A stretch of 64,000 nucleotides of DNA from a virus (Duplodnaviria; Heunggongvirae; Uroviricota; Caudoviricetes). The position numbers were made by a program, and so were the translations under genes. Positions within the stretch are counted from its first letter, which is position 1, and every line of letters begins with the position of its first letter. The notes under the pieces are model-generated. The model saw only the letters and a program-made list of their open reading frames with translations, was not told the DNA's origin and did not search any database. This document shows, in pieces, positions 49,129 through 58,615 of this stretch. The stretch is from IMG/VR virus record IMGVR_UViG_2724679236_000008; one strand, 5' to 3'.

Positions 49129-51047
49129 ATGGAACAGTTCAATATCAATAAAGGGGTGACGATCAAACCTGGGCTTGACGTGCTTCCCCCGCCAGTGACT
49201 GATGATGAATATCGCGCATTAATGGCCGGTGAGGACCGCTATCTGATGACGGAATCCAACACCCTGGAGGAAATCGAGGCTACGTTCTTCTATGACACGC
49301 CGATCCACTGGTGTGCTACGGATTTACTGGAGGCGATTAGTTCTACTCGTTTGCAGTTACACCGGACCATGCAGGCATTTGTCCGGGCATTGAACCAGAA
49401 GCTGAATGGTACCGGAATCTCTGCGGGGAGTGATAAAACGGGGATGTGGCCCAGAGCGGCGCGCGCGCGATCGGCGGCGCTGAAATTGGTCGGGCACGTA
49501 ACGTTAACGGGCTGCCGGTCCTGCCAGCCATTATTCCGCTCAGTGATGGTCAGACTATCAGCATTTTGTTTCATAGCCCGACAGCGGAAAACCGGATCAC
49601 CAATAGCGATACGCTGGTTGCTTTCCAGTTCTTACTGAATAAAAAAGACGTTACTCACACCGTTGCTCCGATGAGTGGACGTGATATGACGCTGGCGCAG
49701 GTCACCATGAAACTTGCCAACCTTGCAGAGAAAAACTCGGCAAAATTCCAGCGTGCGCAGAAGAAGAAAAAAGCCCTGGTTGATGAAATAACCCAACTAC
49801 AGGCTGACAGTGACCAGAAAGAGGATGCCATGAGCGACCTCGCGGATCAGGTGGCAGCGGTAGAAGGCCAGAAGGCAGATCTGGAGCAGAAAATTAACGC
49901 GGTTGCTTCGGAAGCGGATTCTCTTTATCAAGAAAATGAGCGTTTGCAGGCGGAGATTGAGCAGCTCAATCGCACTGGTGGGCGCGATACCATTGCTCCA
50001 ACGGGGATGACTGGTGGGCACTCTCGCGCGCTGACGGATCGCCTTGCCAGTATCAAAAATCGTATGCATATGGACGGGGAAGCGACGCTCAGTAATGGTG
50101 CATCAATGAAGCAATTCATTGGGGACGGCAAAGGGTATGTCCAGTTAACCGATCCGGATGGCAGCGTGTACATGATCAAGGCTAAATCCATACAGGGTGT
50201 GGACATGGCAGATGCGATCGGCAAGCTGTTTAAAGCCTATAAAGCGGGTAATGTATCGGAATATCTGGTCCAACCAGAAGAGCCTAAACCGGAAAACGTC
50301 GAACCTGAACCAGCGGAGGATACCGGTAGCTCTTCGCCTGAACCAGAAGTCTCTGTAGGTGCATATCGATATGCCCTGCAAATGCGTCCGGCGGCCCCAG
50401 GCGCGATACCTGAAGGTAACAAAGCAATTCTGCCGTGCCCTGATGAAGGTGACCCGTATTATGAATATGCGCGCTACGGCATTGTTACTTACGATACCCC
50501 GCTTTCTGATCAGCAAATGAGTGAGTACGACCTGAAGTTATTGCCTCGCGAGGATTCTTTCGACTTCCTGGCGAAGACACTTACTAATGGTCCGTTTGGC
50601 AAATATGCACAAAAAGCTCTGGAGCTGGCCACCAGCTCACCAGACGAGTTCCGCGTAATGCTGAAAACTCAGTTTCAAAAAACTTTCCCCAATATTGCGT
50701 TTCCGGGGGGCGCAGGCACCGAGAAAATGGTGCAGAGCATGATCAATGCATTGCAGGCCGAAGTCGGTGAGATTACTCAACCAGAATCGGCCCCGGAACA
50801 GCATGATGAAAAGGTTAGCGAAGCAGATGCAGAGGCTAATAAAGCCATTGAATATCTCAATAACGTGATGGATATGCAAAGCACTGACATGGCGGAGATC
50901 CGCAACGCCAGGGGCAATGTCAGGGAAGCGATTGCTGCCCTTCAGGCTGCCGGACGTTTTGATGAAAACGAAGAGCTGGTTAACGGCGCAGCTCGCCACC
51001 TGGCTGATCTGCTGGTAGCAATCCAGAAAGCGGGAGTAGCGGCATGA
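49129..51047 (+). pseudogene. DarA-like head/antirestriction protein gene interrupted by a frameshift near 49435-49470 (or sequencing error)
   Basis: Frame 1 ORF 49129-49638 and frame 0 ORF 49446-51047 together span 1919 bp, the size I recall for intact darA; junction lies in aaaacgggg / gcgcgcgcg runs. Confidence 0.5.
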
Positions 51048-51430
51048 CACTATCAGCTATTGAGTTAATGGACCTCAGCGATAAGTTGGATGCTCTGATG
51101 TCCAAAGCTGCTACCGCGAGTGGCATGGAGTTGCTGGATATCAGCGATGAAATTGACCAGATCATGCAACAGATGGGGTACGGCGCGTCCGGCGGCGGTA
51201 GTGGCGAGGAAAAACAACCTTCAGTACATGATGGTGTGCCAAAACTGGTTGCTGATTTCCTGGCTGATAAATTCGTCGATCAGAGCACCGATGCATTTAT
51301 CGGCACCTTGCAGGACTTGAGTCAATATGTTGGCACATACATCGACCTGGACCAGGTTAAACAGCACACGGCGGCATGGATAGCCGCCAACATTAAAGAG
51401 GCTTCAGGTGTTCGCAGCAACTCTACATGA
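51044..51430 (+). CDS. small acidic protein (DdrA-position, 128 aa)
   Basis: ATGA overlap with preceding frame; followed by a strong terminator. Confidence 0.45.
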   Translation: MTLSAIELMDLSDKLDALMSKAATASGMELLDISDEIDQIMQQMGYGASGGGSGEEKQPSVHDGVPKLVADFLADKFVDQSTDAFIGTLQDLSQYVGTYIDLDQVKQHTAAWIAANIKEASGVRSNST

Positions 51431-51491
51431 GCTGTAGTTTTCGAAGATTCTCACAAGTTCATTTCGCGTAGGTATTTATTTAACCATTAAA

Positions 51492-51529
51492 GCCGAATGC
51501 GGCGGGCACACCACATTCGGCAATTTTTT
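51492..51529. terminator. rho-independent terminator between Dar-type operon and convergent gldA
   Basis: GCCGAATG-(14 nt loop)-CATTCGGC followed by AATTTTTTG. Confidence 0.6.
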
Positions 51530-51563
51530 GAAAACTATCAATGAATTAAATAATCAGAGGGGC

Positions 51564-52667
51564 TTATTCCCACTCTTGCAGGAAACGCTGACCGTACTGG
51601 TCGGCTACCAGCAGTGCAGCATAAACCTGATCTGGCGTTGCGCCGCCAGGCATGTTGTGGATGGTTTCACCTTCTGCACATGCCGCTTCTGCGACAATCC
51701 GCATTTTCGCCGGGATATCTTCTTTAATATCCAGTTGTGCCAGGGTAATTGGCAGGCCGACAGCATGGCACAGCGCAGCTACGGTTTCGATTTCTTCAAC
51801 TGGTGCGTTTTCCAGAACCAGTTGCGTCAGCGTACCGAATGCCACTTTCTCACCGTGATAATAGTGATGCGCATCCGGAATGGCCGTCAGGCCATTGTGC
51901 ACCGCGTGCGCCGCCGCCAGGCCGCCGCTTTCAAAGCCCACGCCGCTCAAATAGGTGTTAGCTTCAATCACACGTTCCAGCGCCGGAGTCACCACATGCT
52001 GTTCAGCGGCAAGCATCGCTTTTTCGCCTTCTTCCAGCAGGGTGTTGTAGCACAGTTCAGCCAGAGCCAGTGCTGCCTGAGTACATTTACCGCCCGCCAT
52101 CGTGGTTGCGCCGCTGCGGGAACAGGCACGTGCTTCAAACCAGGTTGCCAACGCATCGCCAATACCCGCCGCTAACAGACGTGCAGGTGCGCCAGCAACA
52201 ATTTTGGTATCCACAATGACGCGTTCCGGGTTGTTTGGCAGCATCAGATAACGTTCAAACTCACCATCATCGGTGTAGATAACGGAAAGGGCGCTGCAAG
52301 GTGCGTCGGTTGAGGCAATGGTTGGGGCAACTGCAACAGGAACGCCCATAAAGTGTGCCAGTGCTTTGGCTGTATCGAGGGTTTTACCTCCGCCGATTCC
52401 CAGAATTGCGCTACACTGAGCATTCTCTGCAATACCCCGCAGACGATCGATTTCATTTTGCGAACATTCACCGCCGAACGGGGCAATTTCTACCTCTATC
52501 CCAGCATCTTTAAAACTTTTCTCAATATTAGTTTGAGCAAAACCTAACACAAATTTGTCACCTACCACCAACCAATGTTCTGCCAGCGGTTTCAGGTATT
52601 CACCCAGGCGATTAATGACATCTGCGCCTTGGATGTATTTACCCGGTGATTGAATGATGCGGTCCAT
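51564..52667 (-). CDS. gldA: glycerol dehydrogenase GldA (iron-containing alcohol dehydrogenase family, 367 aa), host-like
   Basis: Full-length, essentially colinear with E. coli GldA as I recall it ([30 protein letters not shown]...GIGGGKTLD...[11 protein letters not shown]); own SD AAAGGAG. Confidence 0.9.
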
Positions 52668-52738
52668 AATTGCTCCTTTAGAGATGAGTTATGCTAAATG
52701 TTTTGTTATTCCCGGATGACCTTCTGTATATATCTTAA

Positions 52739-52757
52739 GTCAACATTATAAGTTGAC
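52739..52757. promoter_or_regulatory. perfect palindrome GTCAAC-ATTATAA-GTTGAC in the gldA upstream region
   Basis: 19-bp dyad, 70 nt upstream of gldA start. Confidence 0.3.
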
Positions 52758-52969
52758 GCCAATATTCCGTAGAAGAGATGTTACTTCGCGAGCAGTATGA
52801 CTCCATAGGTTTCTGAGACGTTACTTTGCATATGATATTGCTGAGGCAAATACATTCAATGCCGCATTTTGTGAGATTTTAAGCCAATCTACATCACCAT
52901 TAGGTAAGAGTATCTTTTTTTGGTGGTGATGGCGCAATGTATCAGTGGACAGCATAAGGTGTAACAGGG

Positions 52970-54658
52970 ATGTGTTTGAACGATCATACAGTTATGGCCA
53001 CCAGCAGCGGCTACATCGGTGTGGCACCGTATACCCGCTTGCTATTACATCAGGCATCCGGCATCAAAGATATTATTCACCTGATCAGGCTGCTTTCCCG
53101 TACAGATCCCCAGGATGAACAGCTTGTTCAAGTGCTTGCGCATTTTGTCCGAATGCCTGTTGCCGACGTGAAAAAATGGTGCCGATTATTCGGTATCAGC
53201 AATTCGTTACTTCGCGGATTGTTAAATCACGCATCCTCCCTTGGGCGCGACGGATTTGATGAGATAGCGCAGGCGATAAAAAACGGAGATATGCCACCAG
53301 CTATTGACTGGTTTTCCATTCGCCCAACCAGGGTGAAAGCATTCCTTAGTGCGGCGCAATCAGCATCACCATTGGCAGAAATGGTTCAGAGGTTGTCGCT
53401 CATATTCACAGATCATACCGCGTTCGGTGATCTGGCTCTGGACGAGATGAAAGAAGCCTCCATTCAGTGGGCCGATCAACAAAATGAGGTTAACTCAGAC
53501 TTCTTGCCAGCATTCAGGAAGGCCGTTAGTAAAGCGGATGATGCCCGTGGAATTCTGAAGGCATTTAAGGCATTGCAAAGTCGGGTTAATAAACATGTCG
53601 GTGATATCGATGGGGTAACGGCGGAAGGCAGGGATATCCTTAAAGAGCACGGCATAACGCCAGAGTTTATTGATGAGATCAGGACGGATATGCAGCGTGA
53701 GGTCGTATCGTCTCTGCAAATCGTAGCCAGGGCGTTGGCGGATGCTAATCCGAAGAGTGCGGCCATTGTTAACCGGGTTATTGGTGATATTGAAGCATCT
53801 GAGGGCATGGGGGCACTGAAACTCTTCCTTTCGCGAGCGTTTAATCCTAACGGCAATATTCTCCCTGGCATTATTGGTGAGGCTAAAAAGTATGTCAGCG
53901 AAGAAGAACTTGAGCATCTTGACCAACTACTTAAGCGATTCTCATATAACCCGCAGACACGCTGGCAAATGAATCAGCGAAGTATGGGGTCGGTCCACGA
54001 GAAAGTGTTATCTGCCATGAACAGTGCGATCGCCAACTCATCCGTATCTGAAGAAAAAGCTCTTGAGTGGGCCGACTCTTTTATCACGGAAGAAGTGGAA
54101 GAAGCCCGCGCTGGACAGAATGGTGGGATAGACCTGCGCAAGGAACTTGCTGATATTTATCGCCTGACCGGCGGGAAAATATCGACCTTATCAAAGGTAG
54201 TTCACCACCAGGGAAGGGCATATGCAAATCTAAATGGTGTTGTTGCTGTCAATTTGAACGATGAAAATGCAAGTGCACTGTGGCACGAGCTGGGTCATCA
54301 TCTTGAGTACAGTAACCCTGGTTTGTTAGAGAAAGCCCGGTCATTCCTGAAGGCCAATGTTGAAGGGGATAAACCATCTTTCGTTAATATCGGTGGGCGT
54401 GGCAAGCCTGAATGGTGCTTCAGATCTCAATTGAGTAATATTTATATGGCGAAGGTATACCCGCCAGTCTCAGTAAGTAACACCGGGAAAATTCGGCAGA
54501 AATCACCGACTATTTCCAAAACGTCAGCAACGGAAGTATTCTCTATGGCTCTTCAGTTGTATCATGACAAAGAGGCCGCTGCCGCATCACTGATGAATGG
54601 TGACGGATTGCTGGAACTGTTATTAGGTGTGGCAAAGGAGCTAAATAATGCAGATTAA
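52970..54658 (+). CDS. HExxH-motif protein, putative zinc metallopeptidase-like effector (562 aa)
   Basis: WHELGHHLEY at about residue 455; otherwise no recognisable family; occupies the position after the DdrA-like gene. Confidence 0.55.
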   Translation: MCLNDHTVMATSSGYIGVAPYTRLLLHQASGIKDIIHLIRLLSRTDPQDEQLVQVLAHFVRMPVADVKKWCRLFGISNSLLRGLLNHASSLGRDGFDEIAQAIKNGDMPPAIDWFSIRPTRVKAFLSAAQSASPLAEMVQRLSLIFTDHTAFGDLALDEMKEASIQWADQQNEVNSDFLPAFRKAVSKADDARGILKAFKALQSRVNKHVGDIDGVTAEGRDILKEHGITPEFIDEIRTDMQREVVSSLQIVARALADANPKSAAIVNRVIGDIEASEGMGALKLFLSRAFNPNGNILPGIIGEAKKYVSEEELEHLDQLLKRFSYNPQTRWQMNQRSMGSVHEKVLSAMNSAIANSSVSEEKALEWADSFITEEVEEARAGQNGGIDLRKELADIYRLTGGKISTLSKVVHHQGRAYANLNGVVAVNLNDENASALWHELGHHLEYSNPGLLEKARSFLKANVEGDKPSFVNIGGRGKPEWCFRSQLSNIYMAKVYPPVSVSNTGKIRQKSPTISKTSATEVFSMALQLYHDKEAAAASLMNGDGLLELLLGVAKELNNAD

Positions 54659-54968
54659 AATCGCAGCGCCATTAGGCGGAGATGCCATTATCGAATTTGA
54701 TGATAATGAAGAAGTTTCCGGGCGTTTAAGCATTATCTCCGGTGACATTACCGAGGACATGATCGCTGAAGCCATAGCTGGGGCAAATCCCAATAGCTAT
54801 ATGGGATTCGTTAACACCCTTGATGCTCCCGCAAGTGATGTTCTCCGAACGCTGCATCTTTACGCTGGCTGGTTTGTTGATTGGCCAGCAGTAGATGGTG
54901 GCGATGAGGATGATGATGACGATGAAGAGGGTTTTAGTGATGAAGCAGTCAACCAACTCTTGTATTGA
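54648..54968 (+). CDS. hyper-acidic small protein (106 aa), coupled to the HExxH protein
   Basis: 11-nt overlap with upstream gene; C-terminus DGGDEDDDDDEEGFSDEAVNQLLY; about 25 acidic versus 5 basic residues. Confidence 0.5.
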   Translation: MQIKIAAPLGGDAIIEFDDNEEVSGRLSIISGDITEDMIAEAIAGANPNSYMGFVNTLDAPASDVLRTLHLYAGWFVDWPAVDGGDEDDDDDEEGFSDEAVNQLLY

Positions 54969-55171
54969 CAGGAATTGGCATAGAATTGATTGTTCAAATT
55001 TCATCCATCACATAGACGACTTCATGTTATTTGCCTGATAATTATGGCTTTAATAACCCATGTATATCTTTTGGGTTATATTCTTATCTTTAACAAGGTT
55101 ATAAGAGCGACAATGATAAATTTATCACTATCGCTCTTATAACTCTTTGTTAGCTATAGCTTTAAACAAAT

Positions 55172-55459
55172 TTAGTTTTGAGGCAATGCAACAAAAGTCA
55201 GCTCTTGATCTTTGATTAATGCTTTTGTTTGTTTGGATGTAATTCCCACTTTAGTTTTTACATCATTGTGGAGCTTCTTATACGCTTTTATTTCATCTGC
55301 TGTATATCGGAAGCCATTTGCACTGTTACTGGACAGTTGAAGTGCGATTACGTCATCACTGACACCCGCATCGCTTAGCTTAGCTATGCGGGTAATAGTG
55401 TGGCCTGCGCGAGTGTTTGGGGTGGATATTTTGTCTAAGAAATTGTTCAGTTTTGCCAT
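55172..55459 (-). CDS. hypothetical protein (95 aa)
   Basis: ORF track; flanked by AT-rich intergenic DNA. Confidence 0.45.
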   Translation of the reverse strand: MAKLNNFLDKISTPNTRAGHTITRIAKLSDAGVSDDVIALQLSSNSANGFRYTADEIKAYKKLHNDVKTKVGITSKQTKALIKDQELTFVALPQN

Positions 55460-55677
55460 TGTTTACAACCTCTTACTTGAGTTTATTGCAAGTAGAATTG
55501 CTACTATTTTTTTGCCTCAACGAATCACAATGTACTGGAATAAGAAACTATGAGCAATACTTACGCTTTGCGAATACAGAAGATGAATAATCAACTTATT
55601 ACTAAAATGTTAATAATATTATTCTGTTACATAGTGTTCGCTATAACAATCGGGAGTTGAATGCTAATTCAATAAAT

Positions 55678-55707
55678 AAAGAACCCGCCAATTGGCGGGT
55701 TCTTTTT
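55678..55707. terminator. rho-independent terminator (bidirectional) after the 262-aa gene
   Basis: AAAGAACCCGCC-AATT-GGCGGGTTCTTTTT perfect hairpin with flanking A/T runs; overlaps stop codon of 55706-56494. Confidence 0.65.
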
Positions 55708-56494
55708 AATCACTTTCCACTTCTTCCGTGGTGTTTTCTTGCAGTTCTGTTAATGCAGCACGACACAGGTTCCGGGCCTTGGCTATAGCCACACTTTTTA
55801 CCTCATCCGTCATTGTGCAGGTAATGTACTGATCGAGTTCTTCAGCTCGGATGATGCTTTTCCCAATCATAAACTCTATTTGCCAGAGCAGATCGGCATC
55901 CATCGTCAGTATTTCAGCCTGGCCTTCTGGGCCTGCGGGGAAGCAAACATAAGACTGTTTGCCCAGGCCGATAACTCGACAACTTGCTTCAAGAATTGCG
56001 CGCTTGAGATCTGACTTTGTAACGGAAACAGGTTGGTTTTCACCTGTGATTACACCGTTGACATGGACGTGGAAGGGCATGTAGCTTGAAATACGCTCTA
56101 CTTTCCACACGCCAGCAAGCGATCCTTCATGCAGCACAATGGGGGTAACCGCGAGCTTCATCTCACCATATAACTGCTGGCAGATAGCTGGGTTGCTGAA
56201 TACATCCAAAGGCTCACATTCAAACAGCGGCGCAATCTGCATGAGGTCCATCATGGTCATCCCTGGGGTACGAGCAGTAATGAATTTGCGCATGCCAGTA
56301 TCCATTGTTCGCCAGATAGCCACACCATGTTTTTTGCTCACTTCTTCAGTAAAGCCAAGGTGGCACATGATGGTTTTTTCGATAGCCAGATCGGAGATAG
56401 AAACCTTTTCGCCAGGTACACCATCATTATTGATGGTTACTTCGACGTTCTGGCCATTACGCAGGCGGTATTGAATTGCTTTAGTATTTTTCAC
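55706..56494 (-). CDS. hypothetical protein (262 aa)
   Basis: ORF track; 7-nt gap to upstream gene on the same strand. Confidence 0.5.
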   Translation of the reverse strand: MKNTKAIQYRLRNGQNVEVTINNDGVPGEKVSISDLAIEKTIMCHLGFTEEVSKKHGVAIWRTMDTGMRKFITARTPGMTMMDLMQIAPLFECEPLDVFSNPAICQQLYGEMKLAVTPIVLHEGSLAGVWKVERISSYMPFHVHVNGVITGENQPVSVTKSDLKRAILEASCRVIGLGKQSYVCFPAGPEGQAEILTMDADLLWQIEFMIGKSIIRAEELDQYITCTMTDEVKSVAIAKARNLCRAALTELQENTTEEVESD

Positions 56495-56500
56495 GTTAAA

Positions 56501-57202
56501 TTACTCCACTACAAACCAGTCACATGCCAGCAGGTCACCTACAGAAGGCATCCATGGAACAACTACACCTTGTGCATTTTTCAAAACGAAATGCGCACCA
56601 TAAGGAGCAAGAGGAGAGTCGAAATTGATTTCAAGCTCTCCGTTTGCGGCATGTTTTATAGGGGTTAGTCTTGAAGCACCCTGTTTGTCAGGAACCAGCC
56701 AGCAGAATTGGTTTTCGCCGTTCCACCCGCGTCGAGCAACTTTCTTGCCATCCTTCAGCCACATCAGCGCGTCAGAAAAGTCGGCTGCTTCAAGGTCGAT
56801 TTCTTCTTGCTGGGGGGTGATGCCACCAGCAGAAATAGTTACGCTCCCGGTAAGATTAATACTCATTCCTTTGCCATCAGTAATAATGACTGTTGTTTCA
56901 TTTTCGGAGATGTCATTAATTCGACTAAAGCCATCTTTAAATGTTTTTTCTGATAAATAGGACAAATATCCGTCCTCATAAACGACCAAATACCCGCCAC
57001 TTTGTGGTCGGTGTTCTTGTAGAAACATTGCATCTACATGAACCACGTCCTCTTTTGGTTCAACGATTTGAATGATGCCAAAAAGTGGCTCATCAATTAC
57101 TCCGCAAATAGAAACATTTTTTATTTTCGATGCGCTAACGATTTTGTGGGCTTTGTATTTTGGAAGGGTCTTAAAAAGCTCTTTCGTTGCTATGCTAGTC
57201 AT
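56501..57202 (-). CDS. two-domain protein with C-terminal DUF2829 (Tad2-like) domain (233 aa from ATG 57202; ORF-track start 57370)
   Basis: C-terminus FSDALMWLKDGKKVARRGWNGENQFCWLV...VVVPWMPSVGDLLACDWFVVE fits the DUF2829 pattern; SD GAGGAAAG before ATG 57202. Confidence 0.5.
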   Translation of the reverse strand: MTSIATKELFKTLPKYKAHKIVSASKIKNVSICGVIDEPLFGIIQIVEPKEDVVHVDAMFLQEHRPQSGGYLVVYEDGYLSYLSEKTFKDGFSRINDISENETTVIITDGKGMSINLTGSVTISAGGITPQQEEIDLEAADFSDALMWLKDGKKVARRGWNGENQFCWLVPDKQGASRLTPIKHAANGELEINFDSPLAPYGAHFVLKNAQGVVVPWMPSVGDLLACDWFVVE

Positions 57203-57399
57203 AGTCTTTCCTCTGCTTAAAACCTGATGTATTGCGCCTTCAGGTGGGTCAAGAATGTTTTCCCACCAGCGAAAGCAATATCTCGGGGTGTTCTTTTCGT
57301 GAAAAGCGCGTGCCATTGCCAACTTTGGCGTTTGTTTGCGAGTTCGTGCTTTTGTCGGCGTCTGGACCACCGCTTTTCTTTCAGTCGTTTTTTACACAT

Positions 57400-57888
57400 T
57401 CAAAACGGAATATCGTCGTCAAAGTCCATTGGAGGTTCGTTATTGGCGTTGCTCTGAGGTTTACCGCCGCCACTGTATTGCTGGTGGTTTTGAGGTTGGT
57501 TTGATTGCCCCCAGCCATTTGAGGACTGTGAATCGTCACGGCGAGCGCCGATCATTTGCATGGTGCCGCCCTGGCTGACGATAATTTCCGTCGTGTAACG
57601 TTCTACACCGGCGTCATCTGTCCACTTACGGGTTTTAAGTTTCCCTTCGATGTAGACCTGAGAACCTTTTCGTAAATACTCACTCGCAATTTCAGCAAGT
57701 TTTCCGAACAAAACGACTTTATGCCATTCTGTTTGCTCTTTCTGTTGGCCTGTTTGCTTGTCGCGCCATGATTCATTCGTTGCGATGCTGAGTCTTCCGA
57801 CTGCGCCGCCATTTGGTATATACCTGATCTCCGGGTCTTGCCCCAGGGTACCAATCAGGATGACTTTGTTTACACCGCGTTGTGCCAC
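57400..57888 (-). CDS. ssb: single-stranded DNA-binding protein (162 aa)
   Basis: OB-fold N-terminus [23 protein letters not shown], Gly/Gln-rich linker, acidic tail DFDDDIPF. Confidence 0.9.
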
Positions 57889-57907
57889 TTATCTTACCTA
57901 ATAAAAT

Positions 57908-57924
57908 AAATTAATTAGAGCAAT
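57908..57924. promoter_or_regulatory. C1-type operator variant AAATTAATTAGAGCAAT between ssb and lyz
   Basis: 1 mismatch to consensus; in divergent intergenic region. Confidence 0.5.
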
Positions 57925-57947
57925 AATGTATATCTTTGAAACGTAGC

Positions 57948-57969
57948 TAACAAGTGATTTGCATTATCC
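57948..57969 (+). promoter_or_regulatory. late-promoter-like motif variant TAACAAGTGATttgcaTTATCC upstream of lyz
   Basis: AACAAGTGA core shared with the other motif copies. Confidence 0.3.
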
Positions 57970-58057
57970 TGTGCCTTCTAAAGGGATCGAGTCAGTCGGT
58001 ATTGGCTGTGAATGGGTGTTTGTCCTGGAGCGTAAAAAATTCGCTTATGAGGTCTTT

Positions 58058-58615
58058 ATGAAGGGAAAAACAGCCGCAGGAGGCGGTGCAATTTGCGCTA
58101 TCGCGGTGATGATTACCATCGTGATGGGGAATGGCAATGTGCGAACCAACCAGGCGGGGCTTGAGCTTATCGGAAACGCTGAAGGTTGCCGACGTGATCC
58201 ATACATGTGCCCGGCGGGTGTATGGACTGACGGGATTGGTAATACACACGGGGTAACGCCAGGCGTGCGAAAAACCGACCAGCAAATCGCCGCTGATTGG
58301 GAAAAGAATATCCTGTTCGCTGAACGCTGTATTAACCAGCACTTTCGGGGTAAAGACATGCCCGATAATGCCTTCAGCGCAATGACAAGCGCGGCATTCA
58401 ATATGGGATGCAATAGTTTACGGACCTACTACAGCAAAGCGCGAGGCATGCGAGTCGAAACCTCCATCCACAAGTGGGCGCAGAAAGGGGAATGGGTGAA
58501 TATGTGTAACCATCTCCCTGATTTCGTGAACAGTAACGGCGTCCCCCTGCCCGGATTAAAGATTCGCCGTGAAAAAGAACGCCAGCTTTGCCTGACGGGG
58601 CTGGTCAATGAATAA
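58058..58615 (+). CDS. lyz: endolysin (lysozyme), probable SAR-type with N-terminal signal-anchor (185 aa)
   Basis: Weakly hydrophobic Gly/Ala-rich N-terminus AAGGGAICAIAVMITIVMG followed by lysozyme motif ELIGNAEGCRRDPYMCPAGVWTDGIGNTHG; SD GAGG before ATG 58058. Confidence 0.75.
   Translation: MKGKTAAGGGAICAIAVMITIVMGNGNVRTNQAGLELIGNAEGCRRDPYMCPAGVWTDGIGNTHGVTPGVRKTDQQIAADWEKNILFAERCINQHFRGKDMPDNAFSAMTSAAFNMGCNSLRTYYSKARGMRVETSIHKWAQKGEWVNMCNHLPDFVNSNGVPLPGLKIRREKERQLCLTGLVNE

Follow-up and report, generated by a model that had tools for sequence, protein, structure and literature searches.

Phage P1 carries the segment ddrB-hxr-isaB-IS1-isaA-ssb (NC_005856, 21.0–27.5 kb). DdrB is a capsid-packaged head protein of the P1 Dar antirestriction system (PMC9024508; PMC12810830) and has been described as a polyvalent Dar protein combining an N-terminal ParB domain with a C-terminal metallopeptidase (MPTase) domain (PMC5512222). 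The ddrB, hxr, and isaA genes are not essential in P1 (PMC10695390), and the isaA-IS1-isaB segment is variable region 2 of P1-like elements (PMC9603915). Tad2 proteins are known sponges for the signal molecules of the Thoeris defence systems, and have been reported, by DefenseFinder, in 56% of the P1-group and 93% of the D6-group phage-plasmids (bioRxiv 10.1101/2025.09.12.675607). We analyzed the interval extending from ddrA to ssb in a stretch of 64,000 nucleotides (nt), hereafter the window, from the virus record IMGVR_UViG_2724679236_000008 (Caudoviricetes). In the original prediction, the six open reading frames (ORFs) that separate the stop codon of ddrA (51430) from that of ssb (57400) were regarded as genes that cannot be placed in the P1 backbone, forming a single cargo island and a candidate undescribed anti-defence or defence module. 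All six ORFs were found where they had been predicted. We conclude, with good confidence, that the interval is instead the meeting point of two convergent P1 units, into which three unrelated accessory segments have been inserted at gene boundaries.

Positions 51000–58000 of the window were compared to plasmid and phage sequences by megablast. The query was 100% identical over 100% of its length to plasmid pEA4_97 of Escherichia albertii BIA_4 (NZ_CP117679.1, 97 kb, IncY), which was the single plasmid with a full-length 100% match and the only record displaying the full gene combination of the interval. Parts of the interval were found in 639 plasmids and 24 phage records, and phage P1 covered 56% of it at 97% identity. 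The element is a P1-like phage-plasmid, as had been assumed.

To assign the genes, the interval was aligned by BLAST, block by block, to the P1 reference (NC_005856). Matches to P1 were obtained for positions 51000–51402 (end of darA and ddrA, 96.8% identity), 52950–53006 (ddrA/ddrB junction with the ribosome-binding region and codons 1–12 of ddrB, 81% identity), 53012–54923 (ddrB codons ~447–995 and hxr, 97.1% nt identity), 55706–56490 (isaA, 95.2% nt identity), and 57193–58000 (isaA upstream region together with ssb, 98.8% nt identity). The PHROG profiles for DdrB (phrog_2299), Hxr (phrog_2292), and IsaA (phrog_2326) agreed with this alignment. Thus, half of the six genes (ddrB, hxr, and isaA) belong to P1 and are located at P1 positions. 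By the criterion set with the original prediction, the presence of these genes at the corresponding place in P1, this result largely refutes the island idea.

The boundaries of the remaining segments were set by comparison with plasmids lacking the inserts, pEA22_2 (NZ_CP117630) for gldA and the Escherichia coli plasmid pE148-2 for orf95 and the Tad2-family gene. The latter plasmid displays a minimal backbone, in which ddrA, a short ddrB, and hxr face isaA and ssb in convergent orientation, with one common terminator hairpin. Relative to this backbone, the window contains two extra segments, at 54926–55678 (orf95 module) and at 56491–57192 (Tad2-family gene, also called the DUF2829 gene). Plasmid pEA22_2 is collinear with the window except for positions 51403–52953, indicating that the gldA cassette was inserted cleanly, with the last ddrA codons on one side and the ddrB ribosome-binding site on the other. 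The three segments have different distributions, since the gldA cassette was found in 16 P1-like plasmids of E. albertii, whereas the plasmids containing orf95 numbered 15 and those containing the DUF2829 gene at least 229.

The organization of the window was further compared to those of its closest relatives. The window and P1 share the order and orientation of ddrA, ddrB, hxr, isaA, and ssb, blocks of 95–99% DNA identity, the same overlap between ddrB and hxr, and a C1 operator upstream from ssb. They differ by the size of DdrB, which comprises 995 amino acids (aa) with an N-terminal DdrB-ParB domain in P1 but 562 aa without this domain in the window, by the presence of isaB and IS1 in P1 at the position occupied by orf95 in the window, and by the lack of gldA and of the Tad2-family gene in P1. 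Phage vB_EcoM-Ro157c2YLVW (NC_050153) contains hxr, orf95, isaA, the DUF2829 gene, and ssb in the order of the window, whereas its ddrB is full-length. Plasmid pEA22_2 contains the short ddrB, hxr, orf95, isaA, the DUF2829 gene, and ssb at 97% identity. In contrast to the window, both elements lack gldA, and their DUF2829 alleles differ from that of the window.

In the proposed organization, the first unit would be formed by the last genes of the late darA operon (ddrA, ddrB, and hxr). The ddrB gene has lost in frame its N-terminal DdrB-ParB region, leaving only a C-terminal helical region and the HExxH metallopeptidase, and hxr remains translationally coupled to the short ddrB. The second unit, on the opposite strand, would be the C1-repressed ssb-isaA unit. 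The first insertion placed at the ddrA/ddrB junction a plasmid-borne cassette encoding a predicted functional glycerol/propanediol dehydrogenase, as metabolic cargo. The second introduced an AT-rich module containing a 95-aa orphan gene at the site of isaB and IS1 in P1, and the third a gene encoding an oligonucleotide/oligosaccharide-binding (OB)-like domain and a Tad2 domain, between ssb and isaA. The features of the interval are listed in Table 1.

Table 1. Features of the ddrA-ssb interval. Positions are those of the window. Free energies marked (+) or (-) refer to the corresponding strand; z-scores are relative to shuffled sequences.
Feature	Position	Strand	Size	Description
ddrA	51044..51430	+	128 aa	phrog_1855, DdrA-like, E 1.3e-57
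gldA cassette	51403..52949		~1.55 kb	Absent from P1 and pEA22_2
Hairpin inside the gldA cassette	51492..51521			Followed by a T-run on the + strand; -18.1 (+) / -23.9 (-) kcal/mol; z ~-4.1
gldA	51564..52667	-	367 aa	Glycerol / L-1,2-propanediol dehydrogenase; NCBIfam equivalog NF047954
Short ddrB	52970..54658	+	562 aa	phrog_2299, positions 445-995 of 995
hxr	54648..54968	+	106 aa	Isoelectric point (pI) 4.05; tail acidic and disordered; 11-nt overlap with the end of ddrB
orf95 module	54926..55678		0.75 kb	35% GC; between hxr and the shared terminator; isaB and IS1 there in P1
Long near-perfect hairpin	55098..55143			Between hxr and orf95; -27.4 (+) / -34.4 (-) kcal/mol; z -6.8 / -9.5
orf95	55172..55459	-	95 aa	Orphan basic protein, pI 9.65
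Bidirectional terminator hairpin	55678..55705			12-bp stem; -21 / -22 kcal/mol; z -6.9 / -5.6
isaA	55706..56494	-	262 aa	P1 backbone gene; 95.2% nt identity to P1 isaA; phrog_2326, E 1.8e-149
Tad2-family gene	56501..57202	-	233 aa	Inserted segment 56491-57192, between ssb and isaA
ssb	57400..57888	-		Annotated as SSB; opens the ssb / Tad2-family gene / isaA unit; 98.8% nt identity to P1
C1 repressor operator (P1 Op21/Ossb)	57908..57924	-		Upstream from ssb; ATTGCTCTAATTAATTT; 1 mismatch to consensus

The proposal that all six genes belong to a single foreign cargo island, encoding a new and undescribed anti-defence or defence module, draws on the proximity of the Dar operon, on the lack of an assigned function for hxr, isaA, and orf95, and on the presence of AT-rich spacers and hairpins. 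However, the three P1 genes are 95–97% identical to P1 at the nt level, and the non-P1 material does not form a single module but separate insertions at three gene junctions, found in 16, 15, and at least 229 plasmids. In addition, the genes are divided between the two strands and make up at least four transcription units, parted by terminators. A scan of PADLOC-DB v2 (E ≤0.01) gave no match for the six proteins, DdrA, P1 DdrB, or P1 IsaB, and the sole clear anti-defence domain of the interval is the known Tad2 domain. The cargo island is therefore a very improbable explanation. The hairpins are strong, as predicted (51492–51521, 55098–55143, and 55678–55705; z-scores of -4 to -9.5 in comparison to shuffled sequences), and the spacers are AT-rich (35–39% GC versus 47.3% for the window), but the hairpins are located inside the interval, at the joints between units, rather than at the boundaries of one island. 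The right edge is devoid of the predicted terminator, ssb, the DUF2829 gene, and isaA being co-directional. The prediction of a hotspot of variation among P1-like plasmids was borne out by the plasmid comparison, and this variability has already been published (PMC9603915). The neighborhood does hold counter-defence genes, as had been hypothesized, but these are not undescribed since Tad2, DdrB, Hxr, IsaA, and variable region 2 are known. The anti-defence content of the interval, Dar components and a putative Tad2-family sponge, is of known and already reported kinds. The main outcome of the analysis therefore corrects the first reading, and the island is not worth pursuing as a new defence or anti-defence system.

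The short ddrB results from an in-frame deletion of codons ~13–445 of P1 ddrB, which removes the DdrB-ParB domain and keeps the start codon and the ribosome-binding site. The DdrB-like ParB domain (PF18763) was detected by Pfam in P1 DdrB (residues 36–167, E 2.1e-39) but not in the protein encoded by the window. Residues 15–562 of the latter protein are 97% identical to residues 448–995 of P1 DdrB, and the C-terminal HExxH metallopeptidase region is retained (H439ELGH443). Comparison of the short DdrB with PDB sequences gave no match. The deletion junction was shared by 32 E. albertii, E. coli, and Escherichia fergusonii plasmids, 15 with gldA and 17 without. The order of ddrA, ddrB, and hxr is conserved in the window, where the antisense gldA cassette (1.55 kb) and a terminator hairpin now part ddrA from ddrB. 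Sigma-70-like sites were fewer than in shuffled sequences (4 versus 11.3), providing no support for a new promoter ahead of the short ddrB.

We considered the possibility that the Dar end of the interval is decaying, with a short ddrB that is a dead remnant, a ddrB-hxr pair cut off by gldA, and a frameshifted darA, so that only gldA and the ssb-side genes would matter. Several observations weigh in this direction and against the organization that we propose. The Prokaryotic Genome Annotation Pipeline (PGAP) annotates the short ddrB of a sister plasmid, and evidently that of the window, as a pseudogene (‘incomplete; missing N-terminus’), which accounts for the lack of a coding sequence (CDS) over this gene in the window's own record. 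Two copies of the short ddrB are broken, by a frameshift in L088 and by an interruption in L092. Owing to the gldA cassette, the late promoter is separated from ddrB-hxr by a terminator hairpin, which follows ddrA, and by an antisense gene. Finally, a frameshift affects darA, the product of which is required for the packaging of DdrB, and the Dar part may therefore be inactive in this element. The darA region of the window (49129–51047) comprises 1919 nt instead of 1920 owing to the loss of one G from a G5 run at ~49441–49446 (ACGGGGGATG in P1, ACGGGGATG in the window), which splits the gene into ORFs of 169 and 533 aa. No darA CDS is listed in the window's record.

The dispensability of ddrB and hxr in P1 also speaks for decay. 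Nonetheless, the start codon and ribosome-binding site of ddrB have been kept, as has the overlap with hxr, and the ORF of exactly 1689 nt is intact in six of the eight copies checked (that of the window and five of seven others), in three host species. Pairwise comparisons of the short forms of ddrB gave ratios of nonsynonymous to synonymous substitution rates (dN/dS) of 0.13–0.22 for dS values of up to 0.14. These ratios point to purifying selection on the short ddrB, to which recombination with full-length alleles could contribute by making the short form look more constrained. The nucleotide missing from darA belongs to a homopolymer run, and sister plasmids harbor an intact darA; its absence is either a sequencing error or the true loss of the protein required for packaging all other Dar proteins. 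On balance, decay of the Dar end is possible but rather unlikely, and the short DdrB retained by the late unit may be functional. The minor points that are new here are the apparent purifying selection on a ParB-less DdrB annotated as a pseudogene by PGAP and the 1-nt frameshift in darA. The ParB-less ddrB offers a natural domain-deletion variant for parting the roles of the ParB and metallopeptidase domains in the Dar system. Together with the architecture of the Tad2-family protein described below, it provides a modest lead rather than a new system.

The coupling of an HExxH protein to a hyper-acidic small protein had been correctly recognized, as the ORFs overlap by 11 nt and the 106-aa protein has a pI of 4.05. 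The latter protein is Hxr, which is 90% identical to P1 Hxr at the aa level (phrog_2292), with an equal overlap with ddrB in the two elements. The last ~14 codons of hxr are unlike those of P1 owing to the downstream insertion. The AlphaFold2 model of Hxr (predicted local distance difference test score, pLDDT, of 72) displays a small alpha/beta domain followed by a disordered tail, with 12 acidic residues among the last 24. Identification of Hxr as a ‘homolog of Xre’, and thereby as a possible repressor, was rejected, as no helix-turn-helix (HTH) family was detected in Pfam at E ≤10. One relative of Hxr (184 aa) consists of a tandem duplication of the Hxr domain.

The host-like character of gldA was confirmed, the score against the NCBIfam GldA equivalog NF047954 being 749.5 bits for a cut-off of 700. 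The protein also matched the Pfam Fe-ADH family (PF00465, E 2.4e-29) and is predicted to be an active dehydrogenase. The chromosomal gldA of Escherichia, located in the ptsA-fsaB-gldA operon, likewise encodes a full-length equivalog, with 95–96% aa identity. In comparison to the chromosomal genes of E. coli, Escherichia whittamii, and E. albertii, the gldA of the window displayed 88–89.5% nt identity, dS values of ~0.5–0.6, and dN/dS ratios of 0.04–0.05. Thus, gldA is a long-diverged and strongly constrained enzyme gene. Recent capture from the E. albertii chromosome was rejected since the nt identity was 87.9% for that chromosome and did not exceed 89.5% for any sampled Escherichia. Homology to the chromosome covers gldA as far as its stop codon, together with the 33 nt ahead of its start codon, which belong to the end of fsaB. 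Unlike the chromosomal gene, the window's copy belongs to a 1.5-kb cassette with its own flanks and hairpin, found on IncF and P1-like plasmids.

The cassette, including its flanks, occupies the ddrA/ddrB junction in the 16 P1-like plasmids of E. albertii. The whole cassette with its flanks was also present on the conjugative IncF plasmid pEA32_1 (88% identity) and on an E. coli IncFIB plasmid (91.5%). On pEA32_1 (positions 4074–7237), it is located between RelE/ParE-HTH and YacAB toxin-antitoxin pairs, and on pZ1323HEC0477-2 it is located a few kb from a YacAB toxin-antitoxin pair. The vicinity of toxin-antitoxin genes on IncF plasmids suggests that the cassette moves within plasmid accessory regions. 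Neither terminal inverted or direct repeats nor a target-site duplication was found at the cassette boundaries, and a transposon signature was rejected for lack of terminal repeats. A literature search for gldA in E. albertii plasmids returned no report. We read gldA as metabolic cargo traded between plasmids and phage-plasmids, and saw no link to defence. The presence of this gldA paralogue on IncF plasmids and on P1-like phage-plasmids of bird-associated E. albertii provides a small example of metabolic cargo exchange. The insertion also rewrote the C-terminus of DdrA, a component of the antirestriction activity against EcoA, between positions 51403 and 51430, where the P1 sequence ending in IKEAA is replaced by a sequence ending in IKEASGVRSNST. 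The last 2 residues are replaced by 9 residues, DdrA comprising 128 aa in the window and 121 aa in P1. The hairpin at 51492–51521 is probably a terminator for ddrA on the + strand and for gldA on the – strand.

The prediction of a DUF2829 fusion was right with respect to the presence of two domains but not to the length of the protein. The 289-aa ORF is probably over-extended, the likely start being the ATG codon at 57202, which follows a GAGGA site and is the start used by PGAP and in all 29 homologues, giving 233 aa. The protein consists of an N-terminal OB-like beta domain (residues ~1–100), a variable linker, and a C-terminal Tad2/DUF2829 domain (residues ~137–233). The Pfam profile PF11195 matched residues 141–232 over profile positions 2–73 of 73 (76.3 bits for a cut-off of 25, E 2.6e-21). 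Among solved Tad2 proteins, the C-terminal domain was most similar to ModTad2 (E 1.4e-12), followed by HgmTad2/AcrIIA7 (1.8e-07) and SPO1 Tad2 (3.9e-07). The residues of SPO1 Tad2 contacting glycocyclic ADP-ribose (gcADPR), W25, N26, W73, S76, and D79, correspond to W160, N161, W217, S220, and D223 in the protein encoded by the window. Across 30 homologues, these residues are either invariant or conserved in at least 90% of the sequences. The protein therefore shares with the known sponges SPO1 Tad2 (8SME), ModTad2 (9EIB), and HgmTad2/AcrIIA7 (8KBI) the GWNG and W-P-S-x-x-D motifs containing the gcADPR contacts. The solved proteins are single-domain and comprise 88–104 aa, in contrast to the protein of the window, which contains an extra OB-like domain and linker of ~135 aa.

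On this basis, the protein most likely acts as a sponge that would sequester the ADP-ribose signals derived from Toll/interleukin-1 receptor (TIR) domains in Thoeris. The closest solved relative, ModTad2, blocks type II Thoeris, which relies on histidine-ADP-ribose (His-ADPR), and not type I. Two observations detract from this assignment. T78 of SPO1 Tad2 is replaced by G222, and the loop formed by residues 174–201 was modelled at a pLDDT below 50. A cyclic-dinucleotide pocket of the HgmTad2 type was not supported because R31 of that protein aligns with a V residue and because the loop is poorly modelled. The gene being located behind the C1 operator and ssb, it is reasonable to infer that it would be expressed early, under the control of the repressor, from the ssb promoter.

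The DUF2829 protein might alternatively not be a Thoeris sponge but an anti-CRISPR of the AcrIIA7 type, or a protein with a virion or nucleic-acid-binding role mediated by its OB-like domain. DUF2829 was indeed first tied to AcrIIA7, and the Tad2 loop varies widely among alleles. The N-terminal domain bears a weak resemblance to Dec, a capsid decoration protein (phmmer E 0.0074), and resembles other OB folds. However, the anti-Cas9 activity of AcrIIA7/HgmTad2 was not reproducible and the same protein binds gcADPR, the gcADPR-contact residues are preserved across the 30 homologues, and P1 lacks the gene, which cannot therefore encode a needed structural protein. A role other than that of a sponge is accordingly improbable, and the Thoeris sponge remains our preferred assignment.

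The OB-like domain was conserved in the enterobacterial phage-plasmid homologues found, and multi-domain Tad2 proteins are common among phages. Fusions of the Tad2 domain also occur in this family with other partners, namely a dUTPase (PF00692), a phage tail-fibre repeat (PF03406), and a C-terminal PF21825 domain. With its own record set aside, the allele of the window shared no more than 85.6% identity with its best match among plasmids. The central 217 nt of the gene (56688–56904), spanning the end of the linker and the first half of the Tad2 domain, share 94.5% identity with phage D6 and with plasmids of Salmonella and Shigella, in contrast to only 81–86% identity to other alleles over the remainder of the gene. 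As judged from these identities, recombination has made the gene a mosaic built around a core that is conserved.

For P1-type Tad2, the two-domain architecture and a closest solved relative that targets type II Thoeris provide a modest lead. We may speculate that the OB-like domain makes P1-type Tad2 more than a plain sponge and that, separately, the ParB-less DdrB and the acidic-tailed Hxr form a self-sufficient protease and partner pair with a counter-defence activity of its own. Together, these proposals are unlikely. In the first, the OB-like domain could provide an additional head that binds a further immune signal, or could tether the sponge inside or onto the particle, for delivery in pre-made form like the neighboring Dar proteins.

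The ssb-isaA unit is preceded by an operator that matches the P1 operator annotation in position. Searching the window for the C1 operator consensus, with up to three mismatches, identified eight sites (659, 10248, 10259, 13781, 28937, 30596, 57908, and 61758) for 0.34 expected by chance. Such a set of sites would be expected if the window retained an intact P1-type immunity circuit. The isaA gene at the distal end of this unit encodes one of the two proteins that had been regarded as unknown, the 262-aa protein, which is P1 IsaA; for the other, the 95-aa product of orf95, the designation stood since it is an orphan without family match. IsaA belongs to a narrow family, with 30 cluster representatives detected by an exhaustive HMMER search of 1.84 billion proteins. 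No Pfam domain was detected in IsaA, distant relatives included, and profile searches returned no relative in the PDB. The IsaA protein annotated in P1 (320 aa, GTG start) begins 56 codons upstream from the start used in other P1-like elements (262–264 aa). In the window, these 56 codons (57193–57370) are located upstream from the DUF2829 gene instead, indicating that the P1 isaA start is probably over-extended and that this stretch is probably a 5' leader.

The orf95 module is absent from the minimal backbone of pE148-2 and from P1; its 15 plasmid occurrences are complemented by phage vB_EcoM-Ro157c2YLVW. The terminator hairpin at 55678–55705, adjacent to the module, is common to the convergent hxr-side and isaA-side units, and its position is identical in pE148-2. 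The hairpin at 55098–55143 is a 46-nt near-perfect palindrome with a 21-bp stem, far longer than a usual terminator stem, and is devoid of a clear T-run. An Rfam scan of positions 50500–58500 (E ≤1) returned only sub-threshold chance matches, centred on two hairpins. The orf95 product had no match in Pfam, PHROG, NCBIfam, or PADLOC, and was represented by only 3 protein clusters in 5.8 billion. A single metagenomic relative was 56% identical. Because of this relative and of a good ribosome-binding site (AAGAGG) upstream from the ORF, orf95 is probably a real gene.

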